NCBI GenBank assembly: GCA_000004695.1
Contig: CM000152.2
Location: 2,176,001-2,240,000, forward strand
From: Dictyostelium discoideum
Lineage: Eukaryota
Reading direction: 5' to 3'
DNA: 64,000 bases
Part shown: positions 877 through 41,132 of the stretch, in pieces
Numbering within the stretch: position 1 is the stretch's first letter
How the letters are laid out: each line of letters begins with the position of its first letter
Made by a program: the position numbers and the translations under genes
The notes under the pieces: model-generated
The model's input: only the letters and a program-made list of their open reading frames with translations
The model's database searches: none
What the model was told of the DNA's origin: nothing

Positions 877-4098
<3,222 letters not shown>

Positions 4099-4465: not shown

Positions 4466-4563
4466 TTTATAATCCAAGCATTCTTTCAATTCCATCAACT
4501 AGCAACGAAGATCTCACTGTTGATATGTTTAGAGGCCAATTATTAAAAATGTTAAATAAGTAA
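4189..4563 (+). CDS. Putative exon 2 of the same gene (adds ~124 aa; S/T- and poly-N-rich tail ending ...DMFRGQLLKMLNK)
   Basis: Intron 4099..4188 has a GTAAGA donor and a TTTATTTATTTTAG acceptor in phase 0. The frame stays open to the TAA at 4561-4563. Confidence 0.4.
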
Positions 4564-5106
4564 TAAATAAGAATTAAAAAAAAAAAAAAGACATTGAAAC
4601 AATTGTTTTCACATTTTTTCATTGTTTTTTTTTTCAAATAAAAATCCCATTTAAGCGAAACTATGACCAAATTTTGGCAAAAGAATTTTTTTTTATTTTT
4701 TTTTTTATTTTTTTTATTTATTTTTTTTATTTTTTTTAATTTAATTTTTAATTTTTTATTTTTTATTTTTTTTTTCTTTTTCTTTTTCTTTTCTCATTTA
4801 AAAAGAAAGAAAAAGAAAATTTGGTTCAAAAGATAATTAATTAATTAATTTTGGAGTTAATCTATTCAATCAATCGTATGTATGTATGATATTAAATAAT
4901 GTTTCATTATTGAGCAAATCAGTTTTAGTGAAATGATAATATTATCATAAGGATGCACTCAATTTTATGAAACTGTATAAAAAAAAAAAAAAAAAAAAAA
5001 TATAATAAAAAACAATGATTTTGTTGTGTTTGTGTGTTTAAAAATATATATTTATTTTATTATTATTATTATTATATTATTCATACCATTAAAATAATAA
5101 TAAAAA

Positions 5107-30681: not shown

Positions 30682-32042
30682 TTATCTTTGATTTGGAGTT
30701 GATTGTTGTGGTGGAGTATTTTGTGGTAAATAAGGAACTTGATGAGATGTTGAAGAATTTGGAGAGATATTATTATTATTATTAAGATTATTATTTGGTG
30801 AAGATGGATTATTATTATTATTATTGTTAATATTGTTATTATTATTATTATTATTTAATGGTTTATTTGGACTATTATTACCAGAATTACTTGTTAAAGA
30901 AGATTGAGGAGAAGGGATTGGAGTACCTAATAGATTACCTTGAATATTTTGTCTAAAGGTAGAATTCTTTGAAGCGGCTTCAGCAATAGCACTCATAATC
31001 ATTGGATTTTGTAAATTCATACCAGCAGGAAGTATTCCTTGTGGTAATGGTGAATTTAAACCTGGTGGTAATATACTATTTAAAAATTGATCAGCAACAC
31101 CTGATGGTGAGTTTGTACCATTACTACCACCTTTAGGGAAAGAGAAGGATACGGCTTGGGTAACGAAATTTCTAAGATATAAAAGTTGTTCACGAATTAA
31201 TTTATTCTCAGAGTTTAATAATTCGACACGTGCTCTAAATTCACTATTTGTACCAGTTAAATCTGAAACCTTTTTTTCAAGATCTTGAATGTAGGCTTTT
31301 TGTCTTTGTCTAAATAATTGAGCAGCTTCTCTATTTTTAACTAATCTTCTTTGTCTTTTTTGATGTCTTTCTTCATCCATATTAAAGCCACCATCAGTTG
31401 TTGGAATTAAAGTTGTACCACCATTTTCACCTTTTACAGGTGTTGAACTTATAAATTTTCTCTTTTTAATAGATTTATCTTCTTCTTTTTTCTTTCCATT
31501 ATTTGAACCATTTAATTGATTATTTTGATTATTTATATTATTATTTAAATTATTAATTTGTGTACTAATATTATTTGAATTATTATTATTATTATTTGGA
31601 TTTGAATTTGAATTTGAATTATTATTATTTAATGAAATATTATTGTTTTGATTGCTATGTGGTGGAATTGGAATTAATTGATTTGGTTGAATTGGTTGTT
31701 TAAAATTAATATTTTTATTATTGTTATTGTTATTGTTGTTGTTGTTGTTGTTGTTGTTTGCATTGTTAGTTGATGGAACATTTAACATTGTTTGTGAAGA
31801 CACACCAAAAGGTACATCAAATATTGATTCAGGCACTATATTATAATGGTTTTGTTTAATTGGTTCATTCATATATTCAACTTTTTTATTTGGTTCTTGA
31901 TTTGGAACAATACCATTTGATGAATAAATTTCTTCCATTGGATTTTTAATTTGATAAAATTGGTTATTATTATTATTATTATGTGGTTGACCATGTGGCA
32001 AATGATGTTGTTGTTGTTGTTGTTGAGCATGATTTAAATTTA

Positions 32043-32091
<49 letters not shown>

Positions 32092-32339
32092 TACATTATC
32101 ATGATAACTATTATTTAATTCGTTCTCCTTTTCAGGTTGTAAATAAATCGAAAATAGTTGTTCTTCTTGTTGGCTACCATTGGAATTATGATTTATATAA
32201 ACTTGAGATTGTGCATTATTATGTTGAATATTATTATGATTTTGATTATTATTGTTATTATTATGATTTTGATTATTATTATTACTATTATTATTATTAT
32301 TACTACTACTACTATTATTATTATTATTACTACTACTAC

Positions 32340-32391
<52 letters not shown>

Positions 32392-32577
32392 AATTAAACC
32401 ATTTGATTGTTTATTTTGTTGTTGAATTTGTTGTTGTTGTTGTTGGAAATTATTAAAAACATTTGCATTCTTTTTAAATTTATTTGGGCTATCGGGAACG
32501 ATACTTGATGCAAAATCGATACCAAGATCTTGAGTTTGGAATAAGTTGTAAATGGAGTCACCTTCAATAAGACTCAT
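30682..32577 (-). CDS. bZIP transcription factor (631 aa; N/Q-rich, C-terminal bZIP)
   Basis: Basic region plus leucine zipper: ERHQKRQRRLVKNREAAQLFRQRQKAYIQDLEKKVSDLTGTNSEFRARVELLNSENKLIREQLLYL. Confidence 0.8.
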
Positions 32578-35500
32578 TTTTTCAATTGGAAATTATTATT
32601 ATTATTATTAATAATTAAATAGATTAGATACCAATCGTTTATTAATATTATTATTGTTGTTGTTATTGTTGGTGATATTATTATTTTATTTGTAGATTTT
32701 TATTAATAAATATTAATTATACGTAATACTATTTATTTTGATTGAATTTATTATTATTATTATTATAAACGTTTTAGTTTTTAGTAAATTCTTTTTTTTA
32801 ATTTTTTGAATTTGTTTGGATACAATCGTTTCAATAAAAGAGAAAAAGAATAAATTATAAAGTGTAAATTTTAAAATATTTGGTGGCAAGTGTTTCTAAT
32901 TGAATTTAAGAATTTTATGAATAATGAAAAAAATATATTAATATTTACTATTTTATTTTATTTATTTATTTATTATTTAATTATTTAATTATTATTATTT
33001 TTTTATTATTTTTTTTTTTTTTTTTTATTTTTTTTATTTTTTTTTTATTACTATTATTATTATTTTAAGGGTATAACAACAAAGTAAAAACAATATAATA
33101 TTTGAAATTATTTGTATTATTATTATTATTATTATTACTATTAAAAGTCTTTAAAAACAATTTTTAAATTTACTATTACTACTCTATTATTATTTTGAAT
33201 TTTAAATAATGAGATTCAGAACAAAATGGGTAGTGAATAGAAAAAAATTTTAAATTTTTAAATATATATTGGATATATATTATTTATAAAAAAAAAAAAA
33301 TTACAAATATTAAAATTTTTAAAAAATAAATAAAATATTATTTTATCTAAAAGTAATAAAAATTCAATCTATATGACTAATTATTTGTAATGGTTTTCCA
33401 AATTTTCATACCAAAAGTAATAGATAATGTTGTTTTTTTTTTTTTTTTTATTAATGCATTGAAAAAAAAAAAAAAATTAAATAATTAAATAAATAAATAA
33501 ATAAATAAATTATTATAAAAATAATAAAAATAATAATAATAAAATTAAGTTGCAGTTAAAAGAAATATTATTTTATAAATTTAACAAAAATAAAGTGCAA
33601 TGAATAAAATAGGTTTTAAAAAATTTTTTAATATTATAAAAAAAAATAAAATGATAATAATAAAATAATAAAAATAAACAGTTTGTTTTGAAAATAGTAT
33701 TACTACCTTTGAATTTTTGTTTTTGTTTTTCTTTTTCTTTTTTTTTTTTTTTCTAAAAGTTATTATTATTTTAATTGAGGTTATTTATTTTTTATTATTA
33801 TTATTAATGCTTAATATTGGTAAATTTGATTTTTGAAATAATATTGAAAAAATAAAAAAAAAAATATAATAAAATTTATTTTTATTTTATTTGCAATCAC
33901 AATTGTTGATGATTATTTGTAATTTTAAAAAAAAAAATTGATTTTTTGTTTGTGTTTTTGATGTTGGGAAAAAAACAAATTAAATAAAATAAAATAATTT
34001 AAATAAATAAATAATTAAATAATTTTTAAATAAAAATAATTAAAAATTATCAAGTTAAAAAAAAAAAACGGAATTAATAAAAGATTTTTTATCAATGAAT
34101 GAATTATTATGGAGGTGTATAAAAAATATTTGATTATATTATTTTCTTTTATAATTTTATTGAAAGTGGAAAAAAAAAAAAAAACAAAAAAAAAAAAATT
34201 ATTATTATGGTGTGTGGTTTATAAAAAATAATTATAATTATAATTTTATTTTAAATAAATAATTAAAATTATTATTTGTTTTAAAATTGGGTGTGGAACA
34301 CATGTATATGTGGTAAGTATATATAAATATTTATTGTGGTGTTATATATTGTGTATGTGTGTGTTTGGGTGTGTGTGTGTATGTGTGAGTCCAACCTTTC
34401 ATTGTGACATTGTTGACTAGATTAAAATGTGGTGATGTTTTGGTGTATTTGTGGTTGTTTTTAAAGAAGGGGTGTGTATATGATTGATCTGCGACAATTT
34501 CTATTTCATTTTTTTATTTGATAATAAAACAATAACAATATTTCTCAAACCAAAAAAGAAATTTAAAAAAAAAAAAAAAAAATGACACACCACCACACAT
34601 AATTTTAATGATTTTTTAAAATAACAAAAGTTTAATATATAATTGGGTATGGGTGATGATATAAAGTTAAATATCATTCTACATGCATGTATTTTGAGAA
34701 CGATAGATTAAAAAACCAAAAACCCACATTAGAATTGAGTTTAAATGGGGGGATGGGATTATTATAAAAAATAATGAAATAAATTAGGATAAAATTAGAA
34801 TTTTAAAAAAAAAAAAAAAAAAACTAAACATAAATATTACCACCAACACCACCCCCCATTCATATATTATAGATAAAAATAACAATGACAGGAAAATTTT
34901 AAAAACATACCAACACACACACACATATAAACCACACATTTTATTTTTTTATTTTATTTTATTTTTAATTTTTTTTTTTTTTTTTAAAAAAAATATTTTA
35001 ATATGGAAATAGATAAAAAGACATTTGTCGTGTGATATTATAATTATCACTTACCTTTTTAATGTATTTTAAAAAGAAAGTGATAACAATAAAATAAATA
35101 ACTATTCCAATAAGGAAAATAAAAAATATAGAAAATAGAAGAGAAATAAAATAAAACAAAATAAAAAACTATTTATGTTGCAATATATGATAATTCTTCT
35201 TTATTTCCTTTCTATTATTTCATTTTTTACCGTTAAAAAATGTGAACCCAATTTTTTATATAGGAGTAAATACAAAAAAGAAATAAAAATGATATAAACA
35301 AAGTTGATGAAAAGTTGTAAAAGATGAAAATAAACTAAAAAAAAATGAAAAACAATATTTTAAATAATTTAAAAATTTAATATTAACTAAAAATATATAT
35401 ATATATATAATACTAACTATTAATTGTAAAATTATTATAATTTCTAAAATTCTTTTAATTATACTTTACAGATTATTTTCAATGATTTAATTTTTTATTT

Positions 35501-35771
35501 TTTTTTTTTTGGAAAAAATTAATTTTTATGATTATTTATTTAATTTATTTAATTATTTTTTTATATTTATTATTTATTATTTTTTATTTTAAACAATTTA
35601 TTTTTACTTTATTTTTTTTTTTCTTTCTTCTTTTTTTATTTTTATTTATTTAATATAAAGAAAAATATTATTAGTTAATTAAAAACTAAAGTAAAGAGAA
35701 AAAAAGAAAAAGAAAAAGAAAAAAAAAATTTTTTAATCTATTAACTATAGTTTACAAGGTGTTTAAAAAAT

Positions 35772-35811
<40 letters not shown>

Positions 35812-36351
35812 AACCCTCTCTTGATTTTCTTTTTTCTCCCATTTTATCGGAGTGTGGTGGTTTTTACTTTTAATATTTTCATTTTGATTTTTAAAAACCA
35901 ATATTGATATGGAATCGATTTTTTAAAATTTTGTTTTTACTATATCAATACATAATAAAAATATATTTTTTTTAATTTTTTTTAATTTTTTTTTTTTTTT
36001 TCTAAACACACCTTTTTTTTTTTTTTTTTTTTTTTTTTTATTTTCCAAACACATTTTTTTTCTTTTTTTTGTTTTTATTGGGCCGACTTAATTTTTCCAA
36101 AAAAAAAAAAAAAAAAATAAAAATAAAAATTAAATTTAATTTTATTTAATTTAATATGAGACACTTTATTTTAATTCTCTCCCCAAACCATAGATATAAA
36201 AAACCATTACCAAATTTATTCTTAAAAAACTTAATTTAATCTTTATTTTTTATATTATTTTTTTTTTTTTCCCATTTTTTTTTTTTTTTTTTTCTTCCCA
36301 TTATTTTAAATTTTTTTTTTTTATTTTTTTTTTTAAATCCTTAACAAAAAC

Positions 36352-36382
<31 letters not shown>

Positions 36383-36554
36383 AATCCAAACAAAAAAAAA
36401 AAAAAAATAATATCCCAAATAAACAAATAAAATTTTTTTTAACTACCACATATCCAATAAACACTAACAACTAAAAACAAAAAAAAAAAACTAATAATAA
36501 TAATAAAAACAAAAAAATAAAAAATAAAAAAAATATAAAAAGAAAAAAGGAATA

Positions 36555-36897
36555 ATGTCCTCTATTATATTTATTCCAAATGATGCTGATAATATAAATT
36601 CAATAATGGTAACAATTTCATCATCATTATCATTAGTAGGATGTTTATTCATTCTTTCTATTTATATTTATTATAAAGAGTTAAGGGAATTTCAACTTAA
36701 ATTAATTTTTATAATGACAATAAATGATTTTATAATTTCAATAATATTTTTAATAGCAACACATATCCAAACAAAATATTTTGACGCCATAACAAATGTT
36801 TTCCCCTTCTTTTGTAATTTCCCCGATTCATTATTACATTATTTTTTTTTATCTTCATTTTTTTGGGAAGTTTGTATTGCTCATACATTAATTCAAG
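36555..36897 (+). CDS. 7TM receptor-like protein (cAMP receptor / Crl-type GPCR candidate), exon 1 (TM1-TM3)
   Basis: Short N-terminus, then helices IMVTISSSLSLVGCLFILSIYIYY, LIFIMTINDFIISIIFLIAT and SSFFWEVCIAHTLIQ. GTAAAT donor at 36898 (phase 1). Confidence 0.6.
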
Positions 36898-37031
36898 GTA
36901 AATTAAAGTTAACTTTTTTTTTTTTTTAAAAAAAATAAAAAAAAAAAAAATCAAATACTAATTTTAAATTTAAAATATATTATTATTATTGTTATTATTA
37001 TTGTTATTATTATTATTATTATTATTTTTAG

Positions 37032-37483
37032 TTATAAAATATAATAATGATAAAGTTGAAGATAATTTAAAGAAATATTTTATATTTTCAAATGGACTTT
37101 CAGCATTAATAATGGTATCATTATTTTTTATAAGAAGTTATAGTAAAATCGATTGTCATCATGATTCAATCTTTCCCCATCTTTTATTCTTTATACCATT
37201 ATTGTTAACTTGGATTTACAATATTATAGTTTGTGCATTATTAACCAAAACATTTAAAGAACAAGCAATGAATTTTGGCTACTCTTTAGGTATTAATGGT
37301 GGTAGTGGTAGTTATATAAACTTTACTAATAACAATAGTATTGATAATTACTCAAATATAATCATTAAAAATGATTTAATAATAAATAATAATAATAATA
37401 TCAATGTCAATAATAATAATAATAATATAAATATATTATTTCATGTCAATGTCAATAATAATAATAACAAAATAATAATAGTT
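37032..37483 (+). CDS. 7TM receptor-like protein, middle coding segment (TM4-TM5); 3' boundary unresolved
   Basis: Acceptor ...TATTTTTAG at 37030-1 restores the frame: VIKYNNDKVED...FIFSNGLSALIMVSLFFIRSY...LFFIPLLLTWIYNIIVCALL. Only phase-0 donors fit the downstream exon (GTCAAT at 37406/37445/37451 or GTTTAA at 37481), and all are non-canonical. Confidence 0.4.
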
Positions 37484-37563
37484 TAAATTTAATAATAGTA
37501 TTAATAATATAAACATTAATAGTATCAAAATAATGGTAGTAGTAGTGTTAAAATAATTCAAAG

Positions 37564-38173
37564 AAAAGAATTAGAAAAACACCAAATATAATATGGACAT
37601 CAATTTTCTTTTTATTTTCATTTGGATTCATTTGGTCATGGTCAATATTGGTGATAATATTGAAATATTTATCATTGGATGTAAAGTATATTCTAATGAT
37701 ATCCTATTTCTTTATTCCATTACATGGTTGTATGAATGCAGTTTGTTTTGGTGTAAATGATAGACTTAGAATGAATCTCAAGAAAAGTTGTAAAAATTAT
37801 TATTATAAATTTTTAGGTTTATTTAGTTTAGATAAAAGGAAATCATATGGTATAAATGGAAATAATAAAAATAATAAAAATAATAATGGGGCTAATTGTG
37901 AAGAAAGAAGTTTAATTGATTATTCTCCTGATGATGATGATGATGAAGATGATGATAATAATAATAATAATTATAGCGATGGAAATTATTATCAAATTCC
38001 TTCACCTTTTTTAATTGATAGTAGAAATTCTTCAAATTTAACAGATTATTCTGTAATTTTAGATAATAACAATAATAACAATAATAATGGTCCTTATAAT
38101 CCAACAAGATCTAACTCCATTACTGAATTACTTTATAATAATATAAATAGTTTAAATGCAATTAGAATTTTAA

Positions 38174-38242
<69 letters not shown>

Positions 38243-38319
38243 TCAATAATAATGATAACAATAATAATAATAATAATAATAATAGTTTTTGTACAATAGA
38301 TGAAGATGAAACCAAATAA
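37564..38319 (+). CDS. 7TM receptor-like protein, last exon (TM6-TM7 plus an N/D-rich cytoplasmic tail)
   Basis: The frame is open from 37552. Acceptor AG at 37562-3. KTPNIIWTSIFFLFSFGFIWSWSILVIILKYL and YILMISYFFIPLHGCMNAVCFG complete seven helices. Confidence 0.5.
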
Positions 38320-41057: not shown

Positions 41058-41132
41058 AAATTCATCATTATTTTTTTAAATTATTTCTATTTACAAAAGG
41101 GGGGGGGGGGGGGAGAGGTAAGAATTTTATTA

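Follow-up and report, generated by a model that had tools for sequence, protein, structure and literature searches.

We analysed a 64-kb window of the Dictyostelium discoideum genome (chr3:2,176,001-2,240,000) and describe here the long spacer between two of its genes, bzpF and crlG, near the middle of which lies an island of approximately 730 bp that holds a dense cluster of motifs of the type bound by the developmental transcription factor GBF (GbfA). Positions are those of the window unless prefixed chr3, or L for sequences from elsewhere; the mapping rests on the published chr3 coordinates in File S6 of Rosengarten et al., which match the window open reading frames (ORFs) exactly, and the segment from 26 to 42.6 kb aligns with chromosome CM142509.1 of a second assembly (GCA_054883475.1) at 99.7 % identity. 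The bzpF gene (DDB_G0279529), a 1,896-bp ORF on the minus strand (30682-32577; chr3:2206682-2208577), encodes a 631-aa bZIP/CREB-like transcription factor with a bZIP_1 domain at aa 403-463. The crlG gene (DDB_G0279599) on the plus strand (36555-38319; chr3:2212555-2214319) encodes a G-protein-coupled receptor (GPCR) with a 7tm_2 signature; its first exon is 36555-36906 and the intron that follows begins GTAAAT. The two genes are divergently oriented, pointing apart across an interval of 3,977 bp with a GC content of 14.4 % (32578-36554; chr3:2,208,578-2,212,554).

The gene-free interval and its island

The original prediction, made from the letters of the window, had described this interval as unusually long, at approximately 4 kb, and as lacking any ORF of 60 aa or more, and both statements proved correct. 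The longest ORF between 32578 and 36554 is 58 aa, and a stop-to-stop scan for frames of at least 80 codons placed the largest open-frame-free gap of the whole 64 kb at 32593-36527 (3,935 bp), the next-largest being 1,084 bp. In the gene annotation of the second assembly no gene is called in the interval. The mean intergenic length in D. discoideum is approximately 700 bp (PMC5295588).

The island itself (34209-34938) has a GC content of 24 %, against 11-12 % in its flanks, and changes from GT-rich in its left part to CA-rich in its right part; the GC skew is +0.74/+0.67 across 34200-34500 and flips to -0.77 across 34800-35000. The strings quoted in the original prediction were found where it had placed them, and its description of 34290-34480 as G+T-rich was confirmed (72.8 % G+T, 56 G and 9 C residues, GC 34 %). 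Its description of 34560-34940 as C+A-rich held with a qualification: C+A amounts to 64.3 % (51 C and 38 G residues), but this is mostly A, and the purity seen in the GT half is not matched in the CA half, which is broken by the G-rich motifs GGGTATGGGTGATG and GGGGGGATGGGA (34646-34659, 34746-34757).

A cluster of GBF-type motifs

The consensus of the GBF response element is (T/G)G(T/G)G(T/G)G(T/G), as quoted in a section of PMC2257962 citing Schnitzler (1994), and GBF sites come as close pairs that serve opposite neighbouring genes (PMC2257962). GbfA binds G-rich motifs of prestalk as well as prespore genes. We scanned both strands for the corresponding 7-mer, KGKGKGK, counting overlapping matches and then merging them into sites. 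The window contains 74 matches where 24 were expected, and 25 of the 74 fall within the island, i.e. within 1.1 % of the window, where they merge into 12 sites. Among 100 shuffles of the whole window, no 750-bp segment held more than six matches; 1000 dinucleotide shuffles of the island alone gave a mean of 2.9 and a maximum of 12, none reaching 25. Since the 25 matches lie beyond what the dinucleotide composition of the island yields, its G/T and C/A bases must be arranged as runs, and are not merely abundant.

Five merged sites, all read on the plus strand, make up the GT half (34209-34477): GGTGTGTGG (34209-17), TGGGTGTGG (34288-96), TGTGTGTGT (34356-64), TGGGTGTGTGTGTGT (34366-80) and GGGGTGTGT (34469-77), with weaker GT runs at 34334, 34428, 34436 and 34448. 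The CA half (34585-34938, likewise given on the plus strand) has six C-type sites, namely ACACACC (34585-91), CCACACA (34593-99), ACCCACA (34722-28), CCACCCCCCA (34849-58), (AC)6A (34913-25) and CCACACA (34932-38), together with one G-type site, TGGGGGG (34746-52). Most are not pure dinucleotide repeats, as exemplified by TGGGTGTGG, GGGGTGTGT and CCACCCCCCA. The 1994 work of Schnitzler reportedly set paired half-sites as a criterion for GBF sites, and adjacent pairs are present at 34356-64/34366-80, 34585-91/34593-99 and 34913-25/34932-38. Three of the five copies of the 8-mer TGTGTGGT in the 64 kb are inside the island. The sites segregate by strand with only moderate significance: P is 0.066 when the 12 strict sites are considered and approximately 0.02 for 15 looser runs counted by hand.

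Outside the island, an isolated G-box, GTGTGGTGGTTTTT (35852-35865, plus strand), is found approximately 700 bp upstream of the crlG ATG, with CA boxes nearby at 36004-36012 and 36045-36053. Two further features of the island may be mentioned, a perfect 10-nt palindrome, ACATGCATGT, at the centre of the CA half (34681-34690) and two direct copies of AATTGGGTRTGG (34284-34296 and 34640-34652), both of which are possible sites for other factors.

Transcripts over the interval

The original prediction had also proposed a non-coding RNA locus, and this is borne out by a published single-exon long non-coding RNA (lncRNA) model on the plus strand that spans the whole island (33521-35737; chr3:2209521-2211737; 2,216 nt, GC 15.7 %; Rosengarten et al., 2017; PMC5295588). 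The model is listed as CUFF_2333_1 in File S6 and as DDB_G3970223 in File S4 (PMC5295588). The CUFF identifiers of File S4 are apparently shifted relative to the coordinates, chr3:2209521-2211737 appearing there as CUFF_3686_1, and we therefore cite the model by its coordinates. Entry into the catalogue required a length of at least 200 nt, a wholly intergenic position, no tiling path to a neighbouring gene and no ORF of 150 bp or more (PMC5295588); in position, length and ORF content the model agrees with this definition, the longest plus-strand ORF within 33521-35737 being 40 aa. Within the catalogue it is one of 621 intergenic models; it has a single exon and no plus-strand ORF of at least 150 bp, its GC content is between that of random intergenic sequence (13 %) and the lncRNA median (17 %), and its length is 3.5 times the median of 628 nt (PMC5295588). 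It correlates with the neighbouring genes at a Spearman coefficient of 0.717, the catalogue median being approximately 0.02-0.03, and typical lncRNA abundance is approximately 1 RPKM (reads per kilobase per million mapped reads) (PMC5295588). Both ends of the model adjoin long homopolymers (A15 at 33462-76 and T30 at 35775-804) and the true lncRNA may be longer, because reads are unmappable at the homopolymers abutting them.

No coding remnant emerged when the six longest small ORFs were compared with Pfam, which returned only sub-threshold noise. Nor did tblastn with stop-to-stop peptides of at least 15 aa find a peptide conserved with Heterostelium album or Polysphondylium violaceum; the best match (E 0.002 among 177 queries), between a G-rich block at 33206-33240 and L005:4721-4754, is within multiple-testing noise.

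An antisense RNA (asRNA) model, CUFF_2332_1 (31833-33398, plus strand), covers the 5' end of bzpF and extends a further 820 bp upstream (PMC5295588). It is represented by 114 antisense reads as against 9,721 sense reads (1.2 %), with a correlation of 0.86, and the authors warn that many antisense models are strand-switch artefacts (PMC5295588), as CUFF_2332_1 may be. Were it a shadow of the sense mRNA produced by strand switching, the 5' untranslated region of bzpF would be approximately 0.8 kb or more. A second catalogued lncRNA model in the window (55741-56461; chr3:2231741-2232461, minus strand) has an isolated G-box, TGGGTGTGTGGT (55732-55743), at its 3' edge.

Comparison with other dictyostelids

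The two orthologues are again divergent in H. album, with the ATG of bzpF at L005:1581 on the minus strand (placed by its conserved N-terminus MSLIEGDSIY...) and that of crlG at L005:6001 on the plus strand; they lie 4.4 kb apart, and the spacer between them has no ORF of 60 aa or more. Fifteen of the 17 KGKGKGK matches of this 13.2-kb locus are inside the spacer, where five merged GT-type sites fall within 292 bp (4559-4850) and a CA group occupies 2879-3101. The order of the blocks is CA then GT, opposite to that in D. discoideum, and they are 1.5 kb apart; the reversed orientation of the sites fits protein binding, because such sites are orientation-independent.

The synteny with bzpF is lost in P. 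violaceum, where TGGTGTGTGGTTT and a CA run are found 500-770 bp upstream of crlG. The same species has a large cluster of 20 KGKGKGK matches, including a (GT)n run, at L004:17630-18817, between a UTP6-like and an Ank/RabGAP-TBC gene; this cluster is unrelated to crlG. In D. purpureum the orthologues of bzpF and crlG are at the starts of scaffolds GL871317.1 and GL871345.1, both facing outward (L002:1-183 and L003:1-374). Probably these scaffolds adjoin each other across a spacer that was not assembled, and the arrangement fits a spacer that is likewise long and difficult to assemble. Because both scaffolds break off within it, the spacer comparison drew on H. album and P. violaceum. In D. purpureum the annotated bzpF model, of 249 aa, is truncated, the real ATG being at L002:184. 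A search with a four-sequence crlG profile for further crlG orthologues gave no new matches, and two metagenomic bZIP loci (L006-L008) were not syntenic.

The long spacer and its G-box cluster have thus been retained across a deep dictyostelid divergence without retention of orientation or sequence, as would be expected of orientation-independent protein-binding sites and not of an RNA helix, a transposon relic or drift.

Other features of the window

Exon 2 of crlG shows nine clustered single-base indels and substitutions relative to assembly GCA_054883475.1 (37433-37549), such that the single 445-aa ORF of that assembly is split in the window into ORFs of 165 and 223 aa. The discrepancy reflects either reference errors in an Asn-rich tract or a true strain difference affecting the gene model. 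At 41099-41113 an intergenic run of 15 consecutive G residues, in a window of 22 % GC, has long A runs before it and AGAGGTAAG after it.

Discussion

Our preferred interpretation, which we hold with moderate confidence, is that the island is a dense homotypic cluster of GBF-type G-box/CA-rich elements (CAEs) that serves bzpF and/or crlG as a shared control region in development and is transcribed at a low level. It was not among the three options of the original prediction, which were a long hairpin, a decayed mobile-element terminus and a non-coding RNA locus. The bzpF product is required for spore stability, and the gene is induced late in development, downstream of PKA, with high expression in stalk and cup cells; the island lies 1.6-2.4 kb from either ATG. 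In the mechanism that we envisage, GbfA, or another factor with the same GT/CA specificity, would occupy the paired sites after aggregation, the cluster being flanked by poly(dA:dT) tracts that would exclude nucleosomes, and this occupancy would activate outward transcription toward one or both genes. The low-abundance lncRNA would then be a by-product, either the transcriptional footprint of the active region or a distal-promoter transcript, and the GT-then-CA layout would represent two blocks of orientation-independent sites in opposite orientation, rather than base pairing.

The predicted sites have close counterparts in the G-box/CAE promoters on which GBF acts. The promoters of cprB, cotC/SP60 and the sigN family share the 7-nt consensus of the island (PMC2257962) and, as in the island, their sites occur as close pairs in either orientation; those of sigN group 2 also lie between divergent developmental genes (PMC2257962). 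The island has 12 sites in 730 bp, whereas the sigN promoters have two to four (PMC2257962). It differs from GBF promoters also in its distance from the start codons, in the split into GT and CA blocks and in being covered by a lncRNA, and its sites are predicted from sequence. Characterised GBF promoters other than those of sigN likewise carry two to four sites. A further parallel is srfA. Like bzpF, it is a transcription-factor gene of late development, and its coding exon is preceded at a long distance by regulatory and transcribed DNA; srfA has non-coding 5' exons, whereas for bzpF and crlG a spliced leader is only hypothetical. By analogy only, the island also resembles metazoan enhancers that give rise to enhancer RNAs (eRNAs), in which a homotypic cluster of transcription-factor sites far from promoters is accompanied by low, co-varying transcription; for the island, bidirectional transcription is only hypothetical.

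Several points weigh against the interpretation of the island as a GBF-type control region. Classic G-box/CAE promoters are closer to their genes than the 1.6-2.4 kb that separates the island from either ATG. Conservation of the spacer is limited to motif content and spacing, and blastn of the spacer against those of H. album and P. violaceum gave only AT-rich, low-complexity alignments. The lncRNA model starts at 33521, 690 bp to the left of the island, and the island is therefore not simply the promoter of that transcript. The read filter applied to the lncRNA models, at least two raw reads, is a weak one, and both neighbour correlations given for this lncRNA in File S6 are identical to six digits (PMC5295588), which may be an artefact of the table.

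The main rival, which is compatible with a GBF-type cluster and does not exclude it, is that the island consists of a pair of back-to-back or overlapping distal core promoters, from which bzpF, to the left, and crlG, to the right, would obtain long non-coding 5' leaders or alternative first exons; the lncRNA model would then represent one piece of a long transcript upstream of crlG, interrupted where homopolymers cannot be mapped. This idea is attractive in view of a 13-nt exact inverted repeat that bounds the island. The left copy, TGTGTGGTTTATA (34211-34223, plus strand), contains TATAAA when read leftwards and is followed in that direction by A15-C-A13 (34170-34198), i.e. by oligo-dT on the minus strand; the right copy, TATAAACCACACA (34926-34938, plus strand), is followed to the right by a T-rich tract that includes T17 at 34969-34985. 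Each copy thus presents TATAAA and then outward oligo-dT (minus strand, 34223 to 34170; plus strand, 34926 to 34985), a layout reportedly recognized by Kimmel and Firtel in 1983 as that of the canonical Dictyostelium core promoter, and we treat two outward-facing core promoters at the island edges as a lead only. Each half of the spacer also has more C than G on the sense strand of the nearer gene (as a general promoter signature, this excess is a weak tendency across the genes of the window), the lncRNA and asRNA models terminate at homopolymer runs, and there is precedent in the alternative distal promoters of srfA with their non-coding 5' exons. Nevertheless, the lncRNA model keeps to the plus strand through the GT half as well, starting well to the left of the island; it is single-exon, with no splice junctions reported; a proximal TATA, T-run and A/C leader belonging to crlG itself are present at 36190-36554; and TATAAA and T-runs are common by chance at 14 % GC. 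We therefore consider the distal-promoter arrangement unlikely.

It is quite improbable that the lncRNA is itself functional, with its GT and CA blocks pairing as a long-range duplex that forms a structural core or a Dicer substrate. The transcript model does span both blocks on one strand, and the minimum free energy (MFE) of folding was favourable relative to shuffles of the whole sequence (z -2.7 for the plus and -4.1 for the minus strand) and to arm-wise shuffles (z -3.8). Such scores are, however, expected of any GT block followed by a CA block, whose runs are complementary by composition. The long imperfect hairpin of the original prediction found no support: a dot-plot-style search of the island against its own reverse complement revealed no collinear inverted repeat, the complementary segments being on different diagonals without collinear arms. 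The only inverted matches containing G/C are the 13-mer TGTGTGGTTTATA (34211-23/34926-38), (GT)6:(AC)6 and a 9-mer (AATGGGGGG/CCCCCCATT). The 13-mer closes the island, but an inverted repeat of at least 13 nt also arose in 4 of 200 arm-wise shuffles and is only mildly unusual. The best local alignment of one arm with the other (score 50) is AT-only and no better than those of the same arm with unrelated neighbouring AT-rich chunks (34-61). There was no Rfam match at E values up to 10 (32000-37000), no homologue in H. album or P. violaceum that could be aligned by blastn and used for covariation, and no listing of chr3:2,210,200-2,210,799 in the supplement of the DrnB microRNA paper; the blocks of H. 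album, in the other order and 1.5 kb apart, and a typical lncRNA abundance of about 1 RPKM also argue against a duplex. The strongest local structure in the lncRNA model is outside the island, approximately 100 nt to its right, at 35044-35086, where the arms TTATCACTTACCTTTTTAA and TTAAAAAGAAAGTGATAA form a 19-bp imperfect stem (35044-62/35069-86) with a 6-nt loop (minus strand z -5.8, plus strand z -3.5, in 120-nt windows). A small RNA driven by a Dictyostelium upstream sequence element (DUSE; ACCCACAT at 34722) was also considered and was dropped, Rfam being negative and the match to the consensus imperfect.

Neutral compositional drift would make of the island a set of functionless (GT)n/(AC)n microsatellites and G/C patches in a spacer that is long for unrelated reasons. 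Cores of (GT)6 and (AC)6 are indeed present, the strand segregation of the sites is marginal (P 0.02-0.07) and conservation is absent at the level of sequence. Against this, the majority of sites depart from simple dinucleotide repetition, the enrichment is far above both the whole-window and the island-composition nulls, the long spacer and its motif cluster recur in H. album, and the region is transcribed and co-varies with its neighbours, being in the strongly correlated minority of the catalogue (0.72 against a median of approximately 0.02; PMC5295588). We regard drift as quite improbable.

A decayed mobile element, such as a solo long terminal repeat or a relic resembling a miniature inverted-repeat transposable element, is very improbable, for while the island starts TGTGTGG and ends CCACACA, in the manner of TG...CA termini, has the 13-nt exact terminal inverted repeat (equalled in 4 of 200 arm-wise shuffles) and exceeds its flanks in GC content (24 % against 11-12 %), no positive evidence for such a terminus was found: the flanks ATTATTATGG and TTTTATTTTT (...TTATGG and TTTTAT...) share no target-site duplication, the small ORFs have no Pfam match or conserved peptide, a search for a second copy within the 64 kb returned only A-run matches, ARAGORN found no tRNA gene in the window, as elements of the TRE type would need nearby, and motif clusters of the same type occur in H. 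album, within the orthologous spacer, and in P. violaceum, upstream of crlG.

Our preferred interpretation, that of a GBF-type control region, does not make the island novel in kind. Both G-box/CAE elements and lncRNAs are already known from Dictyostelium, and this lncRNA model is in the public catalogue; what is new, and modest, is that the lncRNA spans an exceptional G-box cluster and that the long spacer between bzpF and crlG, again with such a cluster, is found also in a group-2 dictyostelid. It is tempting to speculate further that the spacer is a deeply conserved shared distal enhancer, common to dictyostelid groups 2 and 4, that co-ordinates a transcription-factor gene and a GPCR gene from approximately 2 kb and is marked by an enhancer-associated lncRNA, a possibility that we offer tentatively. 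The Dictyostelium genome is thought to rely on short proximal promoters, and we know of no distal enhancer or eRNA established in this organism. If the speculation is true, this would be, to our knowledge, the first distal enhancer with an eRNA-like transcript to be defined in a social amoeba. Few transcription factors are known to control spore maturation, the bzpF product being one of them; the 730-bp cluster provides a concrete, deletable candidate for the control of its gene, as well as a hypothesis on the function of a lncRNA that ranks near the top of the 621 Dictyostelium models in both length and correlation.

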